From NCBI RefSeq assembly GCF_054482525.1, contig NZ_CM137006.1: a stretch of 64,000 bases of DNA; one strand, 5' to 3'. The notes below the pieces were generated by a model that did not search any database, was not told where the DNA came from, and saw only the letters and a program-made list of their open reading frames with translations. The position numbers and the translations under genes were made by a program. This document shows, one piece after another, positions 4,986 through 45,752 of this stretch. Every line of letters starts with the position of its first letter. Positions within the stretch are counted from its first letter, which is position 1.

Positions 4986-5073
4986 AGGTATAACCTGCGA
5001 GCATGACGCCACCAATTCCGCCTAACGCCATAAACAGGAACAGGGCGATGACCCCAATTTTAGCTATGCGCAT
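4966..5073 (-). CDS. yohO: Small membrane protein, 35 aa ([35 protein letters not shown])
   Basis: Hand-translated from the minus strand (ATG at 5073, TAA at 4966); too short for the ORF track; single hydrophobic helix; matches my recollection of K-12 YohO between yehW and mlrA. Confidence 0.7.
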
Positions 5074-5132
5074 AATGCACTCCTTATGTTAACGAAAGGA
5101 TTGTACAGTAAAGCGCATTTGTTAACGAATGA

Positions 5133-5864
5133 TTAAATGCCGAGTGGGAAAATATCATGGCCTTGTTCCTGCCAACTGGTAAGTTGCTGCTGTTGGGCAG
5201 AGGTTCGATTTTCACCGCACCACACCAGCAATGTACGGCCTTCGAACAGTTCAGGGCGTAGTTGATTGAGCGAGTGGGCGAGGACATCAATGCGCCATCC
5301 TTGTTGACTGGCAATCCAGCCCTCCAGCCACAGACGGGTGGTATCGTGAATATTCCAGCCAACCACCAGCGCATCTTTACCCTGTTTTTTACGTGCCGAA
5401 GCCAGACAAATGGCGATGTAGTTGATCAGTACGCCGTCGAGGATCGCCAGCAGCGCCTGGAGAGTCGGTTGTTGGCACTGAAGTCGTCGGCGCAGAGGAA
5501 TAAACAGATGCGTGGTGAGTGTCTGGGCGGGGTAATCCTGACCGCGCTCTTTGATCCACGTTCGCAGGCTATGCAGATTGCCGCTTTGCAGGTAAGTCAG
5601 TAATGTTTCTTGCTGATCGCGCCAGCCGTTCTGCACATCAACATTTTCATTACTGAGCAGCATTTTAACTTTGCTGACCTGCACGCCGTTGTCGATCCAG
5701 CGTTTGATCTCGCGGATCCGGTCAATATCGGCATCGTTGAACAGCCGATGGCCGCCGTCTGTTCGTTGCGGTTTCAGCAATCCGTAACGCCTCTGCCACG
5801 CGCGTAACGTGACAGGGTTAATATCACAAAGCAACGCCACTTCACCAATTGTGTAAAGCGCCAT
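5133..5864 (-). CDS. mlrA: MerR-family transcriptional regulator MlrA
   Basis: 243 aa; N-terminal MerR-type HTH (YTIGEVALLCDINPVTLRAWQRRYGLLKP). Confidence 0.9.
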   Translation of the reverse strand: MALYTIGEVALLCDINPVTLRAWQRRYGLLKPQRTDGGHRLFNDADIDRIREIKRWIDNGVQVSKVKMLLSNENVDVQNGWRDQQETLLTYLQSGNLHSLRTWIKERGQDYPAQTLTTHLFIPLRRRLQCQQPTLQALLAILDGVLINYIAICLASARKKQGKDALVVGWNIHDTTRLWLEGWIASQQGWRIDVLAHSLNQLRPELFEGRTLLVWCGENRTSAQQQQLTSWQEQGHDIFPLGI

Positions 5865-6085
5865 CGTCTCACCCTTGCTCGCGAGGTCCCGGTTTAACTT
5901 TAGACGCAGTTTTGCGAACCAGGTAGTTTTGCCCGTTTTTTGTGCATCTATAGGGTGATTTTATTTTTGCCAGGCGATTTTGAGTGATCGTACTCACGAA
6001 TTCTCATTTTTCTGCAAGAGTTCAAAGAAAGTTAAACGCAGGCAATGTATGTTACGCGTTTTAAAGGGAAGTGTGGTTTGCGGGT

Positions 6086-7771
6086 ATGTACGATTTTAAT
6101 CTGGTGTTGCTGCTGCTTCAGCAGATGTGCGTTTTTTTAGTCATTGCGTGGTTAATGAGTAAAACGCCATTATTCATACCGTTAATGCAGGTCACGGTTC
6201 GTCTGCCGCATAAATTTCTCTGCTACATCGTCTTTTCCATCTTCTGCATCATGGGCACCTGGTTTGGGTTGCACATTGACGATTCTATTGCCAATACCCG
6301 TGCGATAGGCGCGGTAATGGGCGGCTTGCTCGGCGGTCCGGTCGTCGGTGGGCTGGTTGGTCTGACCGGCGGGTTACATCGATATTCGATGGGGGGCATG
6401 ACCGCGCTAAGTTGCATGATCTCGACCATCGTTGAAGGATTGCTCGGCGGCCTGGTACACAGCATCCTGATCCGTCGCGGGCGCACTGATAAAGTCTTTA
6501 ACCCCATTACCGCCGGTGCCGTCACGTTCGTCGCTGAAATGGTGCAAATGTTGATCATCCTGGCGATCGCCCGACCTTATGAAGATGCGGTGCGTCTGGT
6601 GAGTAATATTGCTGCGCCAATGATGGTTACCAATACCGTCGGCGCGGCGCTGTTTATGCGTATATTGCTCGATAAACGCGCGATGTTTGAAAAATACACT
6701 TCGGCTTTTTCTGCCACTGCGCTAAAAGTGGCTGCCTCGACGGAAGGCATTTTGCGCCAGGGGTTTAACGAAGTTAACAGCATGAAAGTGGCACAGGTGC
6801 TGTATCAGGAGCTGGATATTGGTGCAGTCGCGATTACCGATCGAGAGAAATTGCTGGCCTTTACCGGAATTGGTGACGATCACCATTTACCCGGCAAACC
6901 GATTTCTTCGACTTACACCTTAAAAGCGATTGAAACCGGTGAAGTGGTCTACGCTGATGGCAACGAAGTACCTTATCGTTGCTCTTTGCATCCGCAATGC
7001 AAACTGGGGTCGACGCTGGTAATTCCGTTGCGTGGTGAAAATCAGCGGGTGATGGGCACCATCAAATTGTATGAAGCCAAAAACCGTTTATTCAGTTCAA
7101 TCAACCGCACGCTGGGCGAGGGGATTGCGCAACTGCTTTCGGCGCAGATCCTCGCCGGGCAATATGAGCGGCAAAAAGCGATGCTCACCCAGTCAGAGAT
7201 CAAACTGCTTCACGCCCAGGTGAACCCCCATTTTTTGTTTAATGCGCTTAACACCATTAAAGCGGTGATCCGCCGCGACAGCGAACAGGCCAGCCAGCTG
7301 GTCCAGTATCTTTCCACTTTTTTCCGCAAAAACTTAAAGCGGCCTTCGGAGTTTGTTACTCTCGCAGACGAAATTGAACATGTGAACGCTTATCTGCAAA
7401 TTGAAAAGGCGCGCTTCCAGTCGCGGTTGCAGGTCAACATTGCTATTCCGCAAGAATTATCCCAGCAGCAATTGCCCGCGTTTACCCTGCAACCGATAGT
7501 GGAAAACGCCATTAAACATGGGACATCACAACTGCTCGATACAGGGCGAGTGGCAATCAGCGCCCGACGTGAGGGGCAACATTTGATGCTGGAGATCGAA
7601 GACAATGCCGGTTTGTATCAACCGGTAACCAATGCCAGTGGGCTGGGGATGAATCTGGTGGATAAGCGTTTACGTGAACGGTTTGGCGATGACTATGGGA
7701 TAAGCGTCGCCTGTGAGCCTGATAGTTACACCCGAATAACGTTACGACTACCATGGAGGGACGAGGCATGA
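6086..7771 (+). CDS. btsS: LytS-type sensor histidine kinase BtsS (YehU)
   Basis: Multi-pass membrane N-terminus plus GAF-like and His-kinase regions; start placed at [10 protein letters not shown] giving 561 aa. Confidence 0.88.
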
Positions 7772-8487
7772 TTAAAGTCTTAATTGTCGATGATGAACCG
7801 TTAGCACGGGAGAACCTGCGCGTATTTTTGCAGGAGCAGAGCGATATTGAAATTGTTGGAGAGTGTTCAAACGCCGTGGAAGGGATCGGCGCGGTGCATA
7901 AACTGCGCCCGGATGTGCTGTTTCTCGATATCCAGATGCCGCGCATCAGTGGTCTGGAAATGGTGGGGATGCTCGACCCGGAACATCGTCCGTATATTGT
8001 TTTTCTCACCGCGTTTGACGAATACGCTATTAAAGCCTTTGAAGAACATGCCTTTGATTATCTGCTGAAGCCAATTGATGAAGCGCGACTGGAGAAAACG
8101 CTGGCGCGATTGCGTCAGGAGCGCAGCAAGCAGGATGTTTCGCTGTTACCGGAAAATCAACAGGCGCTGAAATTTATCCCTTGTACGGGGCATAGTCGGA
8201 TTTATTTGCTGCAAATGAAAGATGTGGCATTTGTCAGCAGTCGGATGAGCGGTGTCTACGTTACGAGTCACGAAGGGAAAGAGGGCTTTACCGAACTGAC
8301 ATTACGTACCCTGGAGAGTCGTACACCACTACTACGCTGCCATCGTCAGTATCTGGTTAACCTCGCGCATTTACAGGAGATTCGTCTGGAAGATAACGGC
8401 CAGGCCGAGTTGATTTTGCGTAATGGCTTAACCGTGCCGGTCAGCCGTCGTTATCTGAAAAGCTTAAAAGAGGCGATTGGCCTGTAA
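7768..8487 (+). CDS. btsR: LytTR-family response regulator BtsR (YehT)
   Basis: Receiver domain ([16 protein letters not shown] ... LFLDIQMP) followed by a LytTR DNA-binding domain; overlaps the btsS stop. Confidence 0.88.
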
Positions 8488-8533
8488 AAGACTGCTAAAA
8501 TGGCTTTTTGCCTCATCAACACCTGAAGGCCTC

Positions 8534-9004
8534 ATGCTAAGTAACGATATTCTGCGCAGCGTGCGCTACATTTTGAAAGCCAATAATAATGACCTGGTGC
8601 GTATTCTGGCGCTGGGTAATGTCGAAGCCACCGCGGAACAGATCGCCGTCTGGCTACGTAAAGAAGACGAAGAGGGTTTTCAGCGTTGTCCGGACATTGT
8701 TTTGTCTTCCTTCCTCAATGGCCTGATTTATGAAAAACGCGGCAAGGATGAGTCTGCTCCGGCACTGGAGCCGGAACGTCGCATTAATAACAACATCGTG
8801 CTGAAAAAATTACGCATCGCGTTTTCGCTGAAAACCGATGACATTCTGGCGATCCTCACCGAACAGCAGTTCCGCGTTTCGATGCCGGAAATTACGGCGA
8901 TGATGCGTGCACCGGATCATAAAAACTTCCGCGAATGCGGCGATCAATTTTTACGTTATTTTCTGCGTGGACTGGCAGCGCGCCAGCATGTGAAGAAAAG
9001 CTAA
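8534..9004 (+). CDS. yehS: DUF1456-family protein YehS
   Basis: Start placed at MLSNDILRSV giving 156 aa; synteny. Confidence 0.8.
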   Translation: MLSNDILRSVRYILKANNNDLVRILALGNVEATAEQIAVWLRKEDEEGFQRCPDIVLSSFLNGLIYEKRGKDESAPALEPERRINNNIVLKKLRIAFSLKTDDILAILTEQQFRVSMPEITAMMRAPDHKNFRECGDQFLRYFLRGLAARQHVKKS

Positions 9005-9013
9005 GACGGGTAT

Positions 9014-9038
9014 GGCGGCCATGCGAAACATGGCCGCC
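9014..9038. terminator. Bidirectional intrinsic terminator between convergent yehS and yehR
   Basis: Perfect 10-bp stem ggcggccatg / catggccgcc with a cgaaa loop. Confidence 0.6.
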
Positions 9039-9044
9039 GACAGA

Positions 9045-9506
9045 TTATTTCACTTCTTTAAAACCAGCGGCTTTCATCACCAGTTCCATTTGCGCCATAG
9101 TGATACCTTTTTTGGCATCTTCAGCAGAAACGTTGATTCCTGAAATACCCTGCAGGGCTTTAAAATCCACTTTTTCCATATCGATAGTCACGTTTTCCTG
9201 CGCGTAGGTATCGGTATAGGTTAATTTTTCTTCAACACCCGCGATATTTTTGTATTTGGCGCTTAACGGCTCAAGTGTCTTGGCAGCGTCTTCTTTGGTG
9301 GTTGCACCAATGGAGGCAAATTGAATTTTGGTTTCAGAAGATTGCTTAAGCACCTTGTCACCTTTGTAGACATAGGTAATGGCAATTTCAGTACCGTTCA
9401 GATTGGCGCTGAATTTTTTCGATTCTTCTTTGTCACCGCAGCCAGCAAGAGAGAAAACCAGAACAGATGCAACAACGAGGGAAAACAGCTTATTGAAAGC
9501 CTTCAT
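9045..9506 (-). CDS. yehR: Lipoprotein YehR (DUF1307)
   Basis: Signal peptide with lipobox (LVVASVLVFSLAGC); start placed at MKAFNKLFSL. Confidence 0.8.
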   Translation of the reverse strand: MKAFNKLFSLVVASVLVFSLAGCGDKEESKKFSANLNGTEIAITYVYKGDKVLKQSSETKIQFASIGATTKEDAAKTLEPLSAKYKNIAGVEEKLTYTDTYAQENVTIDMEKVDFKALQGISGINVSAEDAKKGITMAQMELVMKAAGFKEVK

Positions 9507-9630
9507 GTAAAACTCCATTTTATTTAATCAAGAAACTGGTGACTCTCACCAGGGGCTATATAGGATATGCCTAATACCGTGGCGTGAGCAGTCCGGAACT
9601 GGAGTAGAACTCTTAGTAAAAAGCACTATT

Positions 9631-16135: not shown

Positions 16136-16567
16136 ATATTCATCCCTGAAATGTATTAATGAAATAAACGATATTTTACGCGCAATAAATGTTTGGCGCA
16201 TTAGTTGTTTGAGCGAAAAATATCTGGAAAGCAGATCACAGTAAATAAAAAAACCTGCTGGTGAGGCAGGTTCTTTGATTTACTACTTTCAGGCCTAACA
16301 CCACGGCCTGTGCAACATCGTGTTCCAACGAACGAATTATAACCATCGGTGGACCCCGTTGCAATTAAGATAATGAGATTTATAATCCTGACTGTTGGGA
16401 CGTTGCGCCGGATCGAACCCATTTCAAGTCCTGGCTACCGGACGGGTGGTGCCGCAGGTAGTGCCCTGATCCGGAGTGCAACATCGTGGTCCAACATACG
16501 TAAACCAGTATCGACAGGCAGTGTAAGGGTAAGGTGCTGGTGTTGCGCTCCTTAATAAGGAGAGCGA

Positions 16568-16703: not shown

Positions 16704-17176
16704 AATAAAATGATTACATCTTCCATTAATTCACCCGATAACTTTTTTCATATTTATAAATTCATCGATTTTATAATCAACGTACTATTTGGCCGGGATG
16801 TGAATAATCATGGTGGGCTATTGGCGAAAAATATCTGGAAAGTAGATCGTAGAAAATAAAAGAACCTGCTGGTGAGGCAGGTTCTTTTATTTACTACTTT
16901 GATGTTAAGTTACTGATAGTGCAACATGGCATCTCAACGAACGAATTATAACCACCGCTGGACCGTGTTGCAATTAAGATAATGAGATTTATAATCCTGA
17001 CTGTTGGGAAGTTGCGCCGGATCGAACCCATTTCAAGTCCTGGCTACCGGACGGGTGGTGCCGCAGGTAGTGCTCTGATCCGGAGTGCAACATGGCGACT
17101 CAACATACGTAAACCAGTATCGACAGGCAGTGTAAGGGTAAGGTGCTGGTGTTGCGCTCCTTAATAAGGAGAGCGG

Positions 17177-35781: not shown

Positions 35782-36054
35782 ATGTCTCATACCATCCGTG
35801 ATAAACAGAAACTGAAAGCGCGTGCCAGTAAGATTCAGGGCCAGGTCGTGGCGCTCAAGAAAATGCTCGACGAGCCGCACGAATGCGCTGCAGTTTTACA
35901 ACAGATTGCTGCTATCCGTGGCGCGGTAAACGGTCTGATGCGGGAAGTGATTAAAGGTCATCTGACGGAACACATCGTTCACCAGGGGGATGAGCTAAAA
36001 CGTGAAGAAGATCTGGATGTCGTTCTGAAGGTGCTGGATTCTTATATCAAATAA
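35782..36054 (+). CDS. rcnR: Ni/Co-responsive repressor RcnR (CsoR/RcnR family)
   Basis: 90 aa; divergent from rcnA. Confidence 0.9.
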
Positions 36055-36142
36055 TTTATTAACGCTATTGTAAAACTGCCGTTTTTCCTCGTTTACAACG
36101 GGTGCGCTGGACATTACCATCCTCCTCTGCGATTTATCATCG

Positions 36143-36224
36143 CAACCAAACGACTCGGGGTGCCCTTCTGCGTGAAGGCTGAGAAATACCCGTATCACCT
36201 GATCTGGATAATGCCAGCGTAGGG
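36143..36224 (+). repeat. attL-like direct repeat: orphan copy of the 5' 82 nt of the thiM TPP-riboswitch leader
   Basis: 82/82 identity with 44023-44104, checked by eye. Confidence 0.85.
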
Positions 36225-36307
36225 GGCCAAAATAGTCTTGAAAATTATGTGGTTGTATCTCTTTTTGACCATAAATCATGCTGTTAAGGTACAAAAAGGG
36301 GTCGTTT

Positions 36308-37615
36308 ATGAGGTCAAGAACTCTCCCATACACATTTCAGCGAAACGGTAATTACTATCTACAAATCCGGCTTTCGGATGGTCGGATATACAAAAAATCA
36401 CTTTTTACTGACAGTTATCGCGAAGCATCGGCGTTGATGATTGGCCTTACTCCGCACATTCCTTTCGTTAAATCACTCGCTACTCCGTTGCCGCAATTTA
36501 ATAAGTTTGTTTCAAACTTGATCGCTTCGTCACGTAACGTAATGATTCCGTTGCCACTCCCTCAGCAATTGAACAATATTTCTAAAGAAGTTTTGCAGCT
36601 TCAACCACCAGCCAAACCGGAAAAGGTACTAACACTTGCTGATGCGTGGGCTATGTACAAGGAGGAAAGAGGTCGAAATTGGACAAAATCGATCTCAATA
36701 GCAAATGAGCGTTATATGGAGGTATTGCTTGTTGTCTTGGGAAAAGAAACAGACGTAACGGCAATCACCAAACAAGATATTAAGCGAGTAATGGAAACTG
36801 TCGAAAACTTACCAAAGCGTGTAGTGCAACCGTATAGGTCAATGACTATTCAGCAACTAATCGAATGTGATGATGTGCTGCCAGAGGATTTAGTTGGTGC
36901 TGAGGCTGTACATAAGCACCTTAAAATCTACAAATCGTTATTCAAAACATTTCTGACTGAAAACAAAGATATTCTATCTAAGTCTCCGACTGATGGAATA
37001 GTAGCGGCACCATCCAAAGCTAGGTTTGGTGCATACAGTGCAGCAGAAATGAAAAAATTTGTAGGATGGGCACTAAAGCAGCCTGATGGATGGCAGAAGT
37101 GGATCACTTTGTTGTTGGCGTACACAGGAGCCAGAAGAGGTGAGATTGCTAAACTGGAGAAGTCGCAGATCAAATTTGATGAAGATAGCCAGCGGCACTA
37201 TCTTCTGATCGCGGAAAGAAGGCTGGGTAAAACTGAGAATGCTACAAGACAGGTAGTGATTCATCCCAAACTGATTGAGTGGGGGTTTCTGGATTTTGTT
37301 AACCGCCAATGGAAAGAGAAAATCTTTTCGGAAGTCTCAGGTCGAAATATGTCAAAGATAGGTAAAGTTCTTTCAGATGTTCGTGATCAGCTTGATATTC
37401 CTTATCTTGATGATTATGGGCAGCGGCGCTTGGTGCATAGTTTCCGGCATACTATGATTTCTACTTGTTTAGCTGGTTGGGTGAGTAATTTGGCGCATCT
37501 GCAACAGGTGGTAGGTCATGAAAAGAGTGGAGTAGGGATTACCCAGCGTTATCTGCACACATTCCCACTTTCCACCGTTTGTTATGTGATCGATGGTCTT
37601 TGTTGGGAGACTTAG
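36308..37615 (+). CDS. Tyrosine recombinase/integrase
   Basis: Catalytic residues in TGARRGE, HSFRHT and ITQRYLH; start may be 36278 or 36308. Confidence 0.85.
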   Translation: MRSRTLPYTFQRNGNYYLQIRLSDGRIYKKSLFTDSYREASALMIGLTPHIPFVKSLATPLPQFNKFVSNLIASSRNVMIPLPLPQQLNNISKEVLQLQPPAKPEKVLTLADAWAMYKEERGRNWTKSISIANERYMEVLLVVLGKETDVTAITKQDIKRVMETVENLPKRVVQPYRSMTIQQLIECDDVLPEDLVGAEAVHKHLKIYKSLFKTFLTENKDILSKSPTDGIVAAPSKARFGAYSAAEMKKFVGWALKQPDGWQKWITLLLAYTGARRGEIAKLEKSQIKFDEDSQRHYLLIAERRLGKTENATRQVVIHPKLIEWGFLDFVNRQWKEKIFSEVSGRNMSKIGKVLSDVRDQLDIPYLDDYGQRRLVHSFRHTMISTCLAGWVSNLAHLQQVVGHEKSGVGITQRYLHTFPLSTVCYVIDGLCWET

Positions 37616-37743
37616 TTATTCGTGTATCCTTCTTAGTGTATAACCAGCTAATAATTTGTAGATTTTTATTGTCTGAGATCAAAAATTTTCACAACTAATT
37701 TACAATAATAACTTAAGATGAATTTAGGCTTAGTGAGTCTTCT

Positions 37744-38469
37744 ATGGTTAAAAATTTAGGCAAAAAATACAAGTATGGCGATCAACCGATAAGAGCTATT
37801 ACCATACAGATAATTGCTAATCAGTTTGGTGGGGCTGCAACGGCTAAGCAGGTAGATGATTATCTTAGAAAGCTATTTCCATCTTATAAAGATAATACTT
37901 GGCTCAATTTAATTGCTAATACAGTTAATTGTAAGCGGAGCTACTGGAGTTTCAACAAAACTGCCCGACGAACTGATGATGTAACTCATCGGCATCATAA
38001 GTATGACCGATTGTTCAAGCGTGGAAATATTTTTGAAATCTATCAACCATCTGTGCACGGTATTTGGGAATTATACCAGGATTTAGAAGGGATGTGGCGT
38101 TATCGTCAAGTAAAATCGGTTTTCGAAGAAGCTGTTGAGACGGCTGCAAAATTATCTTCAGTGGAACGAAAGCAAATTTTAGCGACAGAAAGTAAAATCC
38201 CGGAACTAATCGAAGTAACAACACGAGTTTATAAACGAAGCCCATATGTAGTTGCTGAAGTTCTTTTGAGAGCAAATGGAAAATGTCAATATTGTAAGCG
38301 AGATGCTCCTTTTCTAAAGGAAGATGGTACTCCATTTCTAGAAGTTCATCATATTGAGTGGCTTTCAAAGGGGGGGGAGGACTCTGTGGAAAATGCTATT
38401 GCATTATGTCCTAATTGCCATAGACAAGCCCATTATGGCGATCTGACATTACTACCTGTTAATAAATAG
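37744..38469 (+). CDS. HNH nuclease with McrA-like C-terminal domain and unrecognised N-terminal domain (candidate type IV restriction enzyme)
   Basis: C-terminus CQYCKRDAPFLKEDGTPFLEVHHIEWLSKGGEDSVENAIALCPNCHRQAHYG closely parallels the McrA HNH motif as I recall it. Confidence 0.7.
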   Translation: MVKNLGKKYKYGDQPIRAITIQIIANQFGGAATAKQVDDYLRKLFPSYKDNTWLNLIANTVNCKRSYWSFNKTARRTDDVTHRHHKYDRLFKRGNIFEIYQPSVHGIWELYQDLEGMWRYRQVKSVFEEAVETAAKLSSVERKQILATESKIPELIEVTTRVYKRSPYVVAEVLLRANGKCQYCKRDAPFLKEDGTPFLEVHHIEWLSKGGEDSVENAIALCPNCHRQAHYGDLTLLPVNK

Positions 38470-38546
38470 GCTTGATGAAAGTTCTATTTCTATATTTTTC
38501 AATATACAAATTTCCCCAAAAACGGCGTGAATATCACGCCGATCAA

Positions 38547-38894
38547 TCATACTTCAGAACACATACTCAATGTGTAAACAGCCATCTCCCCATCGGGATT
38601 AGAAGGGCGTAATACAAATATCGGTATACTGCCATTGTCAATGTATGTGGCTGCAACCCCTCCGTCAGGTGTAGCATACATCTTTGCGATGCTTTTTTGA
38701 CCTACAAAATCAAGTCTCCAAGTTTTACCGCCAAGATTTATGGTCATTTTTTTATCTTGTATATCAAAAGTTGAATCTACAGAAACTTTCTGACTTCCCG
38801 AGTCAATATGACCTTCCTGTATTGCTTTACAGGAAAAGGTTGTGGCGTGGCCCATCACTGGAATTAACAAAGCGGCAAATACTAGTTTTTTCAT
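38547..38894 (-). CDS. Small secreted protein, possibly lipoprotein (about 115 aa)
   Basis: Signal peptide MKKLVFAALLIPVMGHA; no recognisable domain. Confidence 0.5.
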   Translation of the reverse strand: MKKLVFAALLIPVMGHATTFSCKAIQEGHIDSGSQKVSVDSTFDIQDKKMTINLGGKTWRLDFVGQKSIAKMYATPDGGVAATYIDNGSIPIFVLRPSNPDGEMAVYTLSMCSEV

Positions 38895-39004
38895 TTGTCT
38901 CCCTTGGTGTGTCAAATGGATGGTGATGCTAATAATACATGATTGATTCAAAATGTCACGATTAGTGCGTGGTTAATTGGTGCGTCAAATTGCATCTTTG
39001 TGCC

Positions 39005-39469
39005 ATGCGAAAGAATCTGAGATACCTTTTTGGACAACGAGTAAAAGAGTTCCGTATAGCTATTGGCTTAAGCCAAGAGGCCTTTGCAGATCGGTGTGGT
39101 TTTGCACGTAGTTATATGAGTCGAATTGAGCGTGGTTGCTCTAATGCATCTCTTGATGCAATTGAGGTTCTGGCTGACGCTTTGCGTATTGAGCCTTGGC
39201 AGTTACTGGCTTCTGATTCAAGGAAACCTGATGATCAGGAGGTACTTGTTCCTTATGCTGCAGATGGGTCGTGTTTTCATCCAGGATTGGCAAGTACTCG
39301 CGATGGTTCGTTTAGAGTAGGGGAAAAATCAGCCCAGAAACGTTTCAGTTCGTTCAATGAAGCTCTCGAATACCTTCGTGGAATGGAAACCGCGAAGTGG
39401 CGTAGGCCTAATGCTAGTGGTAATTGGGGAATTGTATCTGCGGTTAAATGGGATCGACTGAATCAATAA
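39005..39469 (+). CDS. XRE-family HTH protein with about 80-aa C-terminal domain of unknown function
   Basis: N-terminal HTH (LSQEAFADRCGFARSYMSRIERG); start placed at MRKNLRYL. Confidence 0.65.
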   Translation: MRKNLRYLFGQRVKEFRIAIGLSQEAFADRCGFARSYMSRIERGCSNASLDAIEVLADALRIEPWQLLASDSRKPDDQEVLVPYAADGSCFHPGLASTRDGSFRVGEKSAQKRFSSFNEALEYLRGMETAKWRRPNASGNWGIVSAVKWDRLNQ

Positions 39470-39635
39470 GATATCAGTAATTTTCGGGCCACTCCACAAG
39501 GCAATAAGTGGCTTAGTGGTGATTATCGAAGGGGAATACAAGCGAGCACCTAGGCACCATTGCAAGAACCGCTCAACGCTGAGATCAGCAAGCCCCGATT
39601 TTTGCCGACCGTCCCTGTCAAATATCAAGGAGGCA

Positions 39636-40187
39636 TTACGCCACCTGCTCTTTCTTGATACGTTGCACCGTCTGCGTGCTGACACTGAAATCTTTTGCTA
39701 CGCTCCGAATTGAGCCACCATTCGCGAGAGCGGCAGCAATTCCCGCTCGATCAATTGCTTTTCCATTACCACGTTTTGCTATACGTCCAGCGGCCTTGGC
39801 TGCGGCGATCCCTTCACGTTGACGCTCAAGCATCATTTCACGTTCCATTTGTGCCACTGCTGCAAGAACTGTGAGCATCATATTCCCTGCGGGAGAGTTC
39901 TTTCCTGTCTTAAAGTCTTCTTTATGGAAATGCACAGACACGCCGCGCTTTGTTAATTGCTCTACAGTTGCCAGAAGGTCGGCTGTATTACGACAAAGGC
40001 GATCAATACTATGGACGTGTAACACGTCACCCTCCCGCACATAGTTCATCATTGCCTCAAACTGTGGGCGCTGAGTGTTCTTGCCTGACGCTTTATCTTC
40101 AAAGACTTTATCAAGAGTTACTCCTGCTAATTGACGGTCTGTGTTTTGTTGCACAGTCGATACCCTAATGTATCCAATATTAGCCAT
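39636..40187 (-). CDS. Serine recombinase (resolvase/invertase family)
   Basis: N-terminal IGYIRVSTVQQNTDRQ with catalytic Ser; C-terminal HTH. Confidence 0.85.
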   Translation of the reverse strand: MANIGYIRVSTVQQNTDRQLAGVTLDKVFEDKASGKNTQRPQFEAMMNYVREGDVLHVHSIDRLCRNTADLLATVEQLTKRGVSVHFHKEDFKTGKNSPAGNMMLTVLAAVAQMEREMMLERQREGIAAAKAAGRIAKRGNGKAIDRAGIAAALANGGSIRSVAKDFSVSTQTVQRIKKEQVA

Positions 40188-40674
40188 CTTCTTTTTTCTT
40201 CTGTATTGATTTGTGTGTAGTGATTATTGAACGTGTTGATTAGGTGTGTAAAGTACTTTTTTCACTACGAAATTCGAAGTTTTTTAGTGTGGTGATTTAG
40301 CCTGCCTTATCACTACACTTCTTGCATGAGAATCATGTAGTTACATTTTGGTAAAATTAGCAAGCTATTAAATTGTGTGTTTATTTTGAAAAAATAATTT
40401 TTGTTGCATTAAAGAAAACTTGTTCGACAAATAATAGGTTGATTTTTGATCAATAATTTCTGATAGTGCTCTGTAAGCCGCATTACACAAGGCGCAGCGA
40501 AAGTGATGTAAAAGTGAAGAAAGCTAACATTGCACTTTTAAACTACTTTTCATTGAATTTTTTAGTATGGAATTACACAGGAATAAGTTAGGGATATTCT
40601 ATGATTTACACAGGGAATATAGGGGGATTATGGTATTACACAGAGTGAGTGCTATGTGATGATTGGTAGTAACG

Positions 40675-40782
40675 GTAGGTCACTGTGAACTAGGGGGGTA
40701 GGTCACTGTGAACTAGGGGGGTAGGTCACTGTGAGCTAGGGGGTAGGTCACTGTGAACTAGGGGGTAGGTCACTGTGAACTA
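40675..40782. repeat. Iteron array: five tandem 22-23 bp repeats (gtaggtcactgtgaactaggggg) next to an AT-rich tract
   Basis: Contiguous direct repeats with no spacers, followed by ataagactataataagactattaataaaacta. Confidence 0.8.
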
Positions 40783-41883
40783 CAATAAGACTATAATAAG
40801 ACTATTAATAAAACTATATTAGATTATTAATTAGATCATAATAATAATATTCTTTATATCTATATATATATGATCTTTTGCCTTCCGGCGTTAGCTTCAC
40901 TCTCTGGCAAGCAGCCTTACTCCGCTACCTTTCGGGCTACGTTGGCTGGCCCGTTCCGCTCACACCGAAAGCAAAGCGTTACTTTCTTCGTGTAACTTCG
41001 TTGGCGGTAACGCCCACGAAGGAATACTATTGCGCTGTGCGCAGTAAGAGTAATCACCTAACCAATCATCTGATTGCTTACGTGTTAACTCTCTCTAACT
41101 CTTAATTACCCTCCTACATTTAATAACTCTCGTTATTCTCTGTAGTTGTGTAATTACTCGAAGAGAGAGCGGCTAAAGCTCAATTACACTCTGCTTTCCT
41201 CGTGTAATTTCACTAAGCCTCAATACAATTTCACTTCCTACATTCTGTAGTCGTGTAATTGTTTTCGGTGGAAAAGCCAGAGGCGACACCGAAAGAGAAT
41301 TCTGATCTTATTAATCTTATCTATCTTAGTTATCTTACTTACTTTATCTACTTTATTATTAATAATAGCTTTATAAGCTCTCTGTGTAGCTCTCTGACGC
41401 AAGAAACAGAGTTCAGGAAGGGAATCACCTTAGAAAAGTGTTCTTTGCGTCATAATGTGTTTTATGAAGGATTCAGAGGTGTTTCATAACAGAGATGTAT
41501 AGAGGATACTTTAGGTAATTAAAAATAAGGGGTCTAAATGCTTCTCTAACAGCATTAAGCAGGGTAGAGAATGGAAACCGCTTTGCCTACATATATAAAC
41601 TCACTACAGGGCTTTACAGAGCGTTTTATAAAGTGACTCTCTGTTTTATATCTACCATCACCTTTTCATATACCTAACAAATACAAAATAAGCCCCTTAA
41701 ATAAGCCTCTGGCGAGCTAAACAGCCATTACATAAGAGAATGTATTGCTTTTATCAAAACCTCGTTAGAACGCGTTTTAGAGCGTTTTAGCGGATAATGA
41801 AGAATAGCACTACACAGGAGAGCACGAATTGCTAAGAAAAAATGTAACTACATGAAAAAGATCAGATTTTTTGTGAAAAGGTA

Positions 41884-41912
41884 TTGACAAACGTCTCTTT
41901 CTGTGCAATAAT
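41884..41912 (+). promoter_or_regulatory. Candidate sigma70 promoter for the downstream operon
   Basis: TTGACA, 17-bp spacer, then TGcAATAAT extended -10. Confidence 0.45.
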
Positions 41913-42038
41913 AGGTATTAGAGGGACAGGAATAGATTCTTATCCTCTAAATAATTAAACCAATGCACCGCACTTTGAAGCCCAAGGCTTGTAAGGTGTG
42001 TTTTTTCTTTTAACCAAATAGAATAAGGAGGCTAATTA

Positions 42039-42227
42039 ATGAAATATTTTACTCCACAGGATGTAGTAGAAGCCTGGAAACGTGGTGAGATCAACCGCTT
42101 TAAAGTAAGGATGTATAGAAACACCGCTCGCCGTTGTGGTTATCCAGAGCGTGAAAAATGTTTTGACGATGCACTAAAAATTATTGATGAACTGCGTAAA
42201 GCTGAGAAAGAAGCAGAGAAAAAATAA
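42039..42227 (+). CDS. Small hypothetical protein (62 aa)
   Basis: Strong SD aggagg; first gene of a tightly packed operon. Confidence 0.55.
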   Translation: MKYFTPQDVVEAWKRGEINRFKVRMYRNTARRCGYPEREKCFDDALKIIDELRKAEKEAEKK

Positions 42228-42249
42228 TAGACAAGAGAAGGAGAAAACT

Positions 42250-42417
42250 ATGAGCGAAACTAAGAAACCAATTCCGCGCACTTACCTACACGTTGACCCT
42301 GAAATCTTCAAGGTTTTATTTGCTGAAGCCAAGAAAAGGCAAATTATGGTCAGTGATTTGATGTTAGAAATCATTACTGAAGCAGCAGAGAACATCAAAC
42401 AAAAAAAGGGTAAGTGA
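42250..42417 (+). CDS. Putative ribbon-helix-helix DNA-binding protein (55 aa)
   Basis: SD aaggag; beta-strand RTYLHVDPEIF followed by two helices, typical of CopG/Arc-type RHH. Confidence 0.55.
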   Translation: MSETKKPIPRTYLHVDPEIFKVLFAEAKKRQIMVSDLMLEIITEAAENIKQKKGK

Positions 42418-42468
42418 TCCTCATTCACTTTAGTAGCGCATTAAGCGTGATTTATAAGGAGATTTTTA

Positions 42469-43158
42469 ATGATTAATCAACTAACTTTTACAAAACACTA
42501 TGACACGTTTGATAATGTATCAAAGATTTATTCTGATAAATTCCCTCAAGGAAAAGATTTAGATCTATTACATATTGTGCTTTATTTTCGATTCCTTAGT
42601 TATCAGGAAAACAACCTTAATTGTTATGAAAGTCACGAAACATTAGCTAAGATTTTTAAGTCTTCAGCGTCAACAATTAAACGTAAGATAAACGATCTTA
42701 AAGAGATGGGATTATTAGAAACATCCCCACATCCTGATCCGTATATTTCATCTTTGATTTACAATGCTCTCCCTCTCACAGATGCACATATTACTCCCCC
42801 AGGAGAATCATCACTCTCTGATCTTTCTGAGGCAGAAGAAGCACAGGAACAACCTAAAGGCCATAAACAGCCTTCTTTTGATGTTCTTGATGATTGGGAT
42901 ACGCCTTTACCCTGGGAGACGGAAGAAACACCTGTTTCATCAAGTGAAAAAGTAGCTAATGATAATGAGGAGGATGTGTTAGAGAATTTTGCCTCTCTTA
43001 TCATCCAGGAGAAACACACAAGAACAGGAGGAGCATCATTTATTGAGTTTGCAAATTCACTAGCTTGTAGATACGGGCTAAAACGACCAAATGGTATTGA
43101 GGCATATTTTTCTAAGAATTACCCAAATATATACGATGACTTTGATATTCCATTTTAA
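42469..43158 (+). CDS. HTH protein with acidic linker and SSB-like C-terminal tail (229 aa); possible replication or recruitment protein
   Basis: SD aaggag; HTH-like ETLAKIFKSSASTIKRKINDLKEMGLLE; acidic low-complexity middle; C-terminus YDDFDIPF resembles the E. coli SSB tip DFDDDIPF. Confidence 0.6.
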   Translation: MINQLTFTKHYDTFDNVSKIYSDKFPQGKDLDLLHIVLYFRFLSYQENNLNCYESHETLAKIFKSSASTIKRKINDLKEMGLLETSPHPDPYISSLIYNALPLTDAHITPPGESSLSDLSEAEEAQEQPKGHKQPSFDVLDDWDTPLPWETEETPVSSSEKVANDNEEDVLENFASLIIQEKHTRTGGASFIEFANSLACRYGLKRPNGIEAYFSKNYPNIYDDFDIPF

Positions 43159-43169
43159 TAAGGAGGGTT

Positions 43170-43415
43170 ATGATTCAATATTTAGTAAAAAATCAAGTAG
43201 ACAGAATTCAGTGTAATGACACAGGAAAACGCATCTACGAGACACTTGTTTACCTCTATAAAGGAAAGCCAACACCGCTAAAATATAGCGATGTGTTACA
43301 TCGAGCAGGTTGCTCTGAGTCAGGTTTAAAATTCTGGCTGAAACAGCTATCAAATTTCGGTGTTATTGAAATGAAAGAGCTGTCTTTTTCTACATTCAAC
43401 CTCAAGAAGTTATAG
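43170..43415 (+). CDS. Small winged-helix-like protein (81 aa)
   Basis: SD aaggagg; last gene of the operon. Confidence 0.5.
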   Translation: MIQYLVKNQVDRIQCNDTGKRIYETLVYLYKGKPTPLKYSDVLHRAGCSESGLKFWLKQLSNFGVIEMKELSFSTFNLKKL

Positions 43416-43580
43416 AAAATAGAATTCATCTATTCCACGCTCTAATTCTATTTCTCTGTTTAATATAAAAGGAAAACATTATTATGGTAATAGCTATGTG
43501 GTGGTTGTTGTTTTTTATGCTCGTAGAAACATATGCAAGTAAGTCTGGAAAACAAAAATAATATATTGATGATTTGTTTT

Positions 43581-43820
43581 TTATAACTTCGTGGTGTCAA
43601 GTCCAGCAGCTTTGAGTCGCTCGGTAAGATTTCTCATTTTGCTGAACTCTGTACCAAAGCTGGCTTTAAGTCCTACACCTTCACAAAACTCTTTTGCCGT
43701 AACCTTTTTCAGATGGTCAGCATATTTGATCATCTGGAGGTGCATTTCCATCGTTTGGCTATTTCGTGGTGCGCTGCTAATGGCTTGCTTAATGTTCTCG
43801 TAGATCTGGGTTTCTGTCAT
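43581..43820 (-). CDS. Small helical hypothetical protein (79 aa), convergent with the operon
   Basis: ORF only; low-GC context. Confidence 0.45.
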   Translation of the reverse strand: MTETQIYENIKQAISSAPRNSQTMEMHLQMIKYADHLKKVTAKEFCEGVGLKASFGTEFSKMRNLTERLKAAGLDTTKL

Positions 43821-44022
43821 TTTTTATCTCACCTATCAAATTTAGATAAATAATATAAATTAGCAAATTAAGATAATCAATAGTTTTTATCATCTGAATG
43901 ATAGATGTTAAATGTTTCTTTTTCATTTCTGATATGGGGTACAAAATGGGGTACACAGAGAAGAAGCAATTAATGGAGGCGAGCTTGCATCTGCAAGCCA
44001 CTTCCCCTAAGCTGGCACAAAA

Positions 44023-44166
44023 TATAGAGATTCAACCAAACGACTCGGGGTGCCCTTCTGCGTGAAGGCTGAGAAATACCCGTATCACCTGATCTGGATA
44101 ATGCCAGCGTAGGGAAGTCACGGACCACCAGGTCATTGCTTCTTCACGTTATGGCAGGAGCAAACT
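44023..44166 (+). promoter_or_regulatory. TPP riboswitch (thi-box) in the thiM leader
   Basis: Contains ctgagaaatacccgtatcacctgatctggataatgccagcgtagggaa immediately upstream of the thiM start codon. Confidence 0.9.
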
Positions 44167-44955
44167 ATGCAAGTCGACCTGCTGAGTTCCGCGCAATCTG
44201 CGCACGCGTTACACCTTTTTCACCAACATTCCCCTCTTGTGCACTGCATGACCAACGATGTGGTGCAAACCTTTACTGCCAATACCTTGCTGGCGCTCGG
44301 TGCATCGCCAGCGATGGTTATCGAAACCGAAGAGGCCAGTCAGTTTGCGGCTATCGCCAGTGCGTTGCTGATTAACGTTGGCACGCTGACGCAGCCACGC
44401 GCACAGGCGATGCGTGCCGCCGTTGAACAGGCAAAACGCTCTCAAACACCCTGGATGCTTGATCCAGTAGCGGTGGGTGCACTCGATTATCGCCGCCGTT
44501 TTTGTCTGGAACTTCTGTCTCATAAGCCAACCGCCATACGTGGTAATGCTTCGGAAATCATGGCATTAGCTGGCGTTGCTAATGGTGGACGGGGAGTGGA
44601 TACCACTGACGCCGCAGCTAACGCGATACCCGCTGCACAAACACTGGCACGGGAAACTGGCGCAATCGTCGTGGTCACTGGCGAGATGGATTATGTTACC
44701 GATGGACATCGTATCATTGGTATTCACGGTGGCGATCCGTTAATGACCAAAGTGGTAGGAACTGGCTGTGCATTATCGGCGGTTGTCGCTGCCTGTTGTG
44801 CGTTACCAGGCGATATGCTGGAAAATGTCGCATCTGCCTGTCACTGGATGAAACAAGCCGGAGAACGCGCAGTCGCCAGAAGCGAGGGGCCAGGCAGTTT
44901 TGTTCCACATTTCCTTGATGCGCTCTGGCAATTGACGCAGGAGGTGCAGGCATGA
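44167..44955 (+). CDS. thiM: Hydroxyethylthiazole kinase
   Basis: 262 aa; matches ThiM as I recall it. Confidence 0.92.
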
Positions 44956-45752
44956 AACGAATTAACGCTCTGACGATTGCCGGTACTGATCCGAGTGGTG
45001 GTGCGGGGATTCAGGCCGATCTTAAAACCTTCTCGGCACTTGGCGCTTATGGTTGCTCAGTGATTACTGCACTGGTGGCGCAAAATACCCGTGGCGTACA
45101 GTCGGTGTATCGCATTGAGCCTGATTTTGTCGCCGCCCAGCTCGATTCGGTGTTCAGCGATGTGCGAATCGACACCACTAAAATCGGTATGTTGGCGGAA
45201 ACCGATATTGTTGAAGCGGTGGCAGAACGGTTGCAACGTTATCAGATCCAAAACGTGGTACTCGACACCGTTATGCTGGCAAAAAGCGGCGACCCGCTGC
45301 TTTCACCTTCGGCGGTTGCTACGCTGCGCAGTCGATTATTGCCACAGGTTTCATTAATAACGCCAAACTTGCCCGAAGCTGCTGCCTTGCTCGACGCGCC
45401 ACACGCGCGCACCGAACAGGAAATGCTGGAACAAGGGCGATCGCTGTTGGCGATGGGCTGTGGCGCAGTGCTAATGAAAGGTGGTCATCTGGATGATGAA
45501 CAAAGCCCGGACTGGCTGTTTACCCGCGAGGGTGAACAACGGTTTACGGCACCGCGCATTATGACCAAAAACACCCACGGCACTGGTTGTACACTCTCTG
45601 CGGCGTTGGCTGCACTACGCCCGCGCCATACAAACTGGGCAGACACCGTCCAGGAGGCAAAAAGCTGGCTTTCATCGGCGTTAGCCCAGGCCGACACGCT
45701 GGAAGTTGGTCACGGTATTGGTCCGGTTCACCACTTCCACGCCTGGTGGTGA
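44952..45752 (+). CDS. thiD: Hydroxymethylpyrimidine/phosphomethylpyrimidine kinase
   Basis: 266 aa; overlaps thiM stop; PfkB-type kinase. Confidence 0.92.

Follow-up and report, generated by a model that had tools for sequence, protein, structure and literature searches.

We analyzed a window of 64,000 nucleotides (assembly GCF_054482525.1, contig NZ_CM137006.1), in which a 7.9-kb mobile defence island, flanked by an 82-bp direct repeat, is inserted within the thiamine pyrophosphate (TPP) riboswitch of thiM. Along the + strand, rcnR (35782..36054; open reading frame (ORF), RefSeq) is the conserved chromosomal gene upstream of the site. It is followed by the native thiM promoter, and by the attL copy of the 82-bp core (36143..36224, +), in which the aptamer keeps the 5' strand of P1 together with helices P2, P3, P4 and P5, as established by a repeat search, the Rfam alignment and comparison with K-12. 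Then come the island P' arm with the integrase leader (36225..36307, +; conserved in 12 junctions of the integrase group 1 described below) and a tyrosine integrase of 435 aa (36308..37615, +; PF00589, phrog_1 at 9e-27, RefSeq coding sequence). At the other end, a P arm with two direct GGGGTACA motifs of putative arm type (43936..43956, +; comparison of right ends) and an outward-facing promoter precede the attR copy of the core (44033..44114, +; repeat search, Rfam), which is the functional thiM aptamer. The native P1 3' strand and the thiM expression platform, with its Shine-Dalgarno (SD) and anti-SD sequences (44115..44166, +; identical in K-12, mechanism per PMC5499598), lead into the thiM-thiD operon (44167..45752, +; ORFs, RefSeq).

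The repeat search of the window showed that the two 82-nt copies are 100% identical with a spacing of 7890 bp, a repeat that is not attributable to chance. With the Rfam TPP model (RF00059), the aptamer copy at attR (44036-44132) scored 71.2 bits with P1 intact, and the one at attL (36146-36241) scored 61.3 bits, the gathering score being 54.3. In the alignment, the rcnR-thiM spacer of K-12 is equivalent to the left flank of attL, one core and the right flank of attR; on this comparison K-12 is the empty site and the island a clean insertion. E. coli SCU-102 matches the window at 100% across an 8.3-kb island query (36000-44300), with the order rcnA (reverse strand), rcnR (forward strand), TPP riboswitch, integrase, HNH endonuclease, other island genes, a helix-turn-helix (HTH)-like gene on the opposite strand, TPP riboswitch, thiM and thiD. 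The strains PCN033, B7A and 789 bear the island as well. The same junctions were found in 64 complete E. coli genomes. The locus thus combines the direct repeats, the empty site and the terminal tyrosine recombinase that define a site-specific integrative island, and other genomes add a further mark of such islands, namely related integrases at the same target with differing cargo.

A previous examination of these letters, hereafter the sequence-only reading, had proposed that attL keeps the native sequence upstream of thiM and most of the aptamer. The upstream part is indeed the native rcnR-thiM intergenic region, and attL departs from the native leader straight after GCGTAGGG (36224), as had been stated. 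The integrase start, estimated at about 85 nt downstream, is the RefSeq start at 36308, 83 nt past the repeat.

The native thiM promoter left at attL was recognized by a promoter scan as a sigma-70 promoter (36092..36120, +), with TTTACA (36092-36097), a 17-bp spacer and TACCAT (36115-36120), and is identical in K-12. The same TTTACA-17-TAYCMT layout also precedes the native attL in one Citrobacter (L006) and one Enterobacter (L008) locus. The native thiM transcription start, which is now the 5' end of a 181-nt integrase leader, falls at 36127 (+) when the published distance is mapped through the core onto attL. RegulonDB gives the thiM start as 150 nt from the ATG, as tabulated by Zehentner et al. 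(PMC10469882 supplement), and the numbering of Bastet et al. (AUG U152A, ribosome-binding site (RBS) G142C) likewise puts the thiM +1 150 nt before the A of the ATG (PMC5499598). The start at 36127 follows the -10 element by 7 nt and precedes the repeat by 16 nt. Both promoter and start are thus located wholly upstream of the 82-bp repeat and not inside it, and the promoter now points at the integrase ATG (36308), on the same strand, across the 181-nt leader, in agreement with the sequence-only reading. Between 36121 and 36308, on the + strand, the promoter and terminator scan detected no terminator-like site and no further promoter-like site. A promoter inside the core was also considered and rejected, as its candidate GATAAT (36207-36212) has no -35 element and no start is located there in EDL933 or K-12. 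thiM itself is cut off from its native promoter, with the promoter at 36092-36120, thiM at 44167 and the last island gene on the opposite strand.

The island brings a promoter of its own to the thiM side (43985..44013, +), composed of TTGCAT (43985-43990), a 17-bp spacer and TAAGCT (44008-44013), with a start at 44019; it was identified from a conserved motif and from the Cappable-seq data of strain EDL933. Among 10 right ends of the same type (type A) from several genera, CTTGC and TA..CT are invariant, and the spacing is 17 bp in 9 of the 10 and 16 bp in the last one (L017), which has one deletion. Two other right-end types carry TTG...-17/18-.A...T elements that also face the aptamer. A sigma-54 reading of a CTGGCA motif was discarded, there being no GC element at -12. 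A palindrome conserved among type-A ends, GCTTGCATCTGCAAGC (43981-43996), overlaps the outward promoter at its -35 element and might serve as operator for a regulator of the island.

Two lineages that have lost the rest of the island and the native promoter serve as natural experiments. In O157:H7 (TW14359, EDL933), only a 2.2-kb remnant is left, and the integrase, attL and the native promoter are absent from the locus; the stretch from promoter to core in EDL933 differs from that of the window by 1 single-nucleotide polymorphism (SNP). In BL21, rcnRAB and the native promoter were lost to an IS1 deletion and the island right end was kept. Cappable-seq of EDL933 located thiM starts at 137, 148 and 201 nt before the ATG (PMC10469882 supplement). 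As the core starts at -134, all three are in island DNA and none inside the core, and the -148 start corresponds to position 44019 of the window, 6 nt past TAAGCT. The proposal that thiMD lost its native promoter and relies on island-derived sequence is therefore directly supported by EDL933, in which the native promoter is missing and the starts are all upstream of the core: thiM transcription starts in element DNA, as measured in a strain whose right end is 1 SNP from that of the window. The thiM promoters of K-12 and EDL933 are unrelated, the former native and the latter island-derived (L025 3276-3301 vs window 36092-36127). A published comparison of the two strains scored the thiM start as conserved (150 vs 148, difference -2). 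In E. coli B (L023, BL21-AI, 4994-9522), the IS1 deletion removed rcnRAB, yehA-D, the native thiM promoter and the integrase, and the island remnant, including the EcoBLMcrX region, is located directly upstream of thiM.

Related islands at the same site in two other E. coli strains, EC96 and ETEC1734, made it possible to locate the exchange. Their attL consists of the native promoter and a fully E. coli-type aptamer. In their attR, the island end is joined to a hybrid aptamer, whose 5' strand (CATGACTC) and P3 loop are both foreign and which is E. coli-type from GCTGAGAAATACCCGTATCACC onward. With a native attL and a foreign front at attR, the exchange must have taken place to the right of P3. 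Judging from these junctions, islands of the EC96/ETEC1734 type bring with them the promoter, the beginning of the leader and the 5' part of the riboswitch. The EC96-type hybrid aptamer was found in 36 genomes, and in BL21 the thiM aptamer combines a foreign 5' strand and a native P3. EC96, ETEC1734 and BL21 are thus three cases of functional 5' sequence supplied by the element. In the window, the identity extends over the full 82 bp because the attP copy of its island is already E. coli-type.

The same arrangement recurs well beyond E. coli. Hundreds of integrase relatives at 77-83% identity are present in Cronobacter, Enterobacter, Citrobacter, Klebsiella, Kluyvera and Serratia. A survey in which one genome per species was scanned gave 16 loci, in Lelliottia, Enterobacter, Erwinia, Citrobacter, Silvania, Cedecea, Pantoea, Mangrovibacter and Kosakonia (integrases of 64-83% identity). 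At 14 of the 16, the integrase starts ~83 nt past a thiM-type aptamer copy, with a constant ~160 nt separating the start of the aptamer from the ATG; altogether, an integrase downstream of a thiM aptamer copy was found in more than 10 enterobacterial genera. Two groups were distinguished. Group 1 integrases (77-83% identity) are associated with a departure from the thiM leader after GCGTAGGG, and group 2 integrases (64-71% identity) with a departure after GCGTAG, followed by an imperfect inverted repeat of GGATAATGCCAG, which is a plausible core-type site. The attR copies found in these loci are all followed by a thiM-type expression platform. Many loci are tandem islands, in which attL is preceded by the right end of another island. 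Such arrays, with at least 2 unrelated islands at the thiM aptamer and an aptamer copy between each, were observed at loci L004, L005, L009, L010, L015 and L016; also, at least 3 unrelated right-end types occur at the thiM aptamer, with integrase and right-end types in mixed combination (L009). Among 5426 complete E. coli genomes, the integrase family is present in 221 (4%) and the island right end in 563. No close relative of the integrase was found in the plasmid or phage collections, and an attP carried by a plasmid or a phage was rejected on that ground.

Taken together, our data make it probable that an integrative island of small size, which carries a tyrosine integrase and defence cargo and perhaps also a replication module, has its attL junction at 36100-36310, that its target is the DNA of the thiM aptamer and that its integration swaps promoters reciprocally. 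The attP site carries its own aptamer copy, which begins shortly before P1 and ends with P4, and strand exchange takes place within the right-hand ~53 bp of this copy. Integration leaves the native promoter, the first 16 leader nt and the native aptamer, deprived of its P1 3' strand and platform, in front of the integrase. At the opposite end, thiMD is preceded by the island right end with its outward promoter, fused to an aptamer copy and, beyond it, to the native 3' strand of P1 and the native platform; TPP control of thiMD is thereby rebuilt. If the exchange is reciprocal, the outward promoter would read, in the circle, through the aptamer copy into the integrase with a leader of ~179 nt. 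In the chromosome, the thiM promoter would take its place, and transcripts would reach the integrase with a leader of 181 nt. The attL aptamer would be a by-product of the duplication of the att site and not a regulator; what would cover the integrase RBS is a conserved hairpin, whose arms would also act as two binding sites of arm type.

Several points weigh against this model. Excision and the circular form are inferred, no circular junction having been seen. That transcription runs on from the thiM promoter into the integrase is deduced from the anatomy of the locus, with a 181-nt untranslated leader that Rho could shorten. The outward promoter is a poor match to the sigma-70 consensus (6/12), and the conserved block at the right end could be an arm or a binding site for an accessory factor. 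The EDL933 table lists distances without read counts and does not rank the three starts. Finally, the attP copy of the window is identical to the E. coli sequence, and the position of the crossover is taken from relatives.

The alternative that survives best, which we nevertheless consider rather unlikely, is that the thiM promoter is irrelevant to the integrase. Transcripts would end in the leader, through Rho or RNA decay, and the integrase would depend instead on a weak regulated promoter in the P' arm or on induction by an island regulator. In its favour, the leader is a long, structured stretch that is not translated, and RNAalifold, applied to 12 leaders, gives a conserved hairpin enclosing the SD and the AUG of the integrase. 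Rho often targets riboswitch leaders in E. coli (PMC5499598), and many attL sites in other genera follow the end of another island, which shows that the native promoter is not required. However, no promoter-like site was detected in the stretch from core to integrase, and the native, tandem and presumed circular arrangements all have a promoter-like element similarly far upstream of the aptamer copy.

The conserved hairpin itself was not retained as evidence for control at the RNA level. Within the P' arm, two putative arm-type motifs, CTCTTTTTGA (36259-36268) and GGTACAAAAAGGGG (36288-36301), form an inverted pair, and GGTACA-type candidate arm motifs are conserved on both sides of the core. 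As RNA, the arm-type pair would sequester the integrase SD. The conservation of the hairpin is ambiguous because a DNA motif of arm type, GGTACAAAAAGGG, makes up both of its arms in inverted orientation and is present on the P arm too, and this conservation may act at the DNA level. Also, an alternative in-frame ATG for the integrase is located at 36278, 10 codons before the annotated start, in a frame that is kept in relatives (ATGCACTTGAGG...). This upstream ATG is used in one 445-aa protein cluster, and the downstream start in EC96 is TTG.

Much less probable than the promoter being irrelevant is that attL is a working, repurposed TPP riboswitch, in which TPP would stabilise a long-range P1, shut off integrase translation and tie excision or integration to thiamine status. 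The E. coli thiM TPP riboswitch (RF00059) acts by translational control and Rho termination (PMC5499598). The attR copy is a complete native-type thiM switch. The 82 nt of attL are identical to the native aptamer, with P2-P5, the conserved junction nucleotides and all ligand-contacting segments kept, and the mean pair probabilities of P4 (0.46) and P5 (0.62) are both higher than in the native leader, which speaks for a repurposed switch. On the other hand, the 3' strand of P1 is replaced by island sequence, which leaves 2 of the 5 pairs non-standard in the Rfam alignment and a probability of 0.00 for canonical P1 in the fold calculation. The native expression platform stays at attR, so that attL is without anti-SD and SD platform. 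The sequence-only reading had asked whether a TPP aptamer can still fold at attL. The answer is divided: P2-P5 fold no worse than in the native leader, and canonical P1 cannot form at attL, nor do relatives restore it. For the related tbpA switch, it was shown that mutants of the P1 stem misfold and an anti-P1 abolishes TPP sensing (PMC8609307).

A substitute for P1 was nevertheless observed. The minimum-free-energy fold of 36127-36330 contains P2-P5 and, in place of P1, a long-range helix of 9 bp, which pairs the P1 5' strand AAACGACUC (36148-36156) with GGGUCGUUU (36297-36305) at the RBS of the integrase. A helix this long appeared in only 24 of 2000 shuffles of the downstream segment, and an aptamer copy would precede the integrase whether the island is integrated or excised; both points favour a repurposed switch. 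Against it, the complement needed for the 9-bp helix is missing from all 16 other attL junctions, including three E. coli junctions with the same 5' strand, in which no helix exceeds 4 bp; one match at p ~0.01 is unremarkable among 17 tested junctions. The RNAalifold consensus fold of 12 relatives has no P1 and no covariation between the aptamer and the integrase start, the fold z-scores are not significant, and the 80-nt insert would turn a three-way junction into a five-way junction. The long-range P1 with the integrase RBS, nominally rare as it is, was therefore rejected. Variation was seen at positions invariant in attR: 3 of 18 attL copies are changed there, against 0 of 14 attR copies. 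This too goes against a functional switch, and since the tolerance was set from the attR copies themselves, we take it as a hint only and not as a demonstration of relaxed constraint on attL aptamers.

It is thus highly improbable that a working riboswitch acts on the integrase, because the P1 3' strand and the platform are lost and the 9-bp match is lacking in 16 related junctions; the riboswitch control of the integrase implied by the sequence-only reading is not supported, the substitute pairing being confined to this lineage. We give equally little credence to a narrower version, in which the aptamer copy would be a functional TPP sensor in an E. coli-adapted lineage of this island; through the long-range P1 with the integrase RBS, thiamine status would gate integrase translation, be the island integrated or excised. 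If true, a mobile element would have captured a host riboswitch to control its own recombinase. RefSeq (PGAP) labels the P1-less attL fragment, directly before the integrase, as a 'TPP riboswitch' (L001 1647-1742, window 36146-36241).

Lastly, a local duplication or a misassembly without any integration has nothing in its favour beyond the existence of the repeat, and is refuted by the same junctions in the 64 complete E. coli genomes, by the exact empty site in K-12 and by the same integrase family at the same target in many genera.

The integrative island at thiM resembles the islands of tRNA and tmRNA genes (P4-type, with related tyrosine integrases) in several respects. The target is a highly conserved structured-RNA sequence, the attP copy of part of the target rebuilds the gene and leaves a partial orphan copy at the other junction, the integrase adjoins the att site, and tandem arrays and decayed remnants pile up. 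It differs from them in that insertion at thiM hits the aptamer of a riboswitch, a cis-regulatory element of an mRNA leader, and not a stable RNA gene, and in that the 5' part is replaced and not the 3' part; the thiM island must therefore bring a promoter too. A related situation, which Hochhut and Waldor are said to have described in 1999, is that of the SXT/R391 integrative and conjugative elements (ICEs), which reportedly insert at the 5' end of prfC, displace the native promoter and 5' end and supply substitutes. Like them, the thiM island displaces the promoter and 5' end of the host gene and donates a replacement. Unlike them, it swaps a ligand-sensing RNA domain with host metabolite control kept, it is a non-conjugative island of ~3-13 kb, and the displaced native promoter faces the integrase. 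More generally, recombination rewires cis signals beside the integrase between integrated and excised states in ICEclc (Pcirc), at insertion sequence (IS) junction promoters and in the sib retroregulation of lambda. The swap at thiM differs from these in being reciprocal with a host operon, and the outward promoter would presumably serve the integrase in the circle.

Full-text searches of the literature found no riboswitch used as an att site. In E. coli B, a 'variable island adjacent to thiM' has been mentioned (PMC5487053), and the island has been entered, unclassified, as RM_type_IV at 'rcnR-thiM' (PMC10121019 supplement); neither account mentions the integrase, the att site or the riboswitch. 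A riboswitch aptamer, among the most conserved non-coding sequences of bacteria, can serve as a landing pad for mobile defence islands across genera, as tRNA genes do, and the host gene survives because the island brings its own promoter and aptamer front. A consequence for model strains that has so far been overlooked is that thiM in O157:H7, in E. coli B/BL21 and in ~10% of complete E. coli genomes is transcribed from island DNA and not from the K-12 promoter. The 'TPP riboswitch' label at attL is an annotation pitfall, which could seed false regulon calls. The site also offers a natural system for the study of hybrid aptamers and promoter replacement.

Between the two junctions, the island carries cargo and backbone genes. 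The cargo gene that follows the integrase encodes an HNH endonuclease similar to Type IV methyl-directed restriction enzymes (37744..38469, +; PADLOC mREase_IV 1.3e-23), and the cargo of related islands differs, with HNH/Type IV restriction, TIR, NACHT and AIPR genes. A serine recombinase of invertase/resolvase type (39636..40187, -; phrog_125 2e-61) is conserved in related islands. Five iterons of 22-23 bp (40671..40787; repeat family D1) form a putative replication origin, and a protein similar to replication initiators is encoded at 42469..43158 (+; phrog_270 1.9e-9); from these two features, the island may replicate after excision. The tandem iterons, GGGGGTAGGTCACTGTGAACTAG, are located in a stretch of ~1.8 kb without any RefSeq gene, upstream of the initiator-like ORF. 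A 79-aa HTH-like gene at the right end (43581..43820, -; ORF, RefSeq, homology), homologue of ECD_02033 of E. coli B, points away from thiM.

A perfect 17-nt inverted repeat, TCATGTAGTTACATTTT, was also found at 40333-40349 and 41839-41855, 1489 nt apart, around the iterons and an AT-rich region; it might be a substrate of the serine invertase of the island. Elsewhere in the window, two OrzO-P antitoxin RNA genes were detected on the - strand, at 16247-16322 and 16858-16931 (RF02083, 91.9 and 90.2 bits), which points to a tandem zor-orz type I toxin-antitoxin pair.

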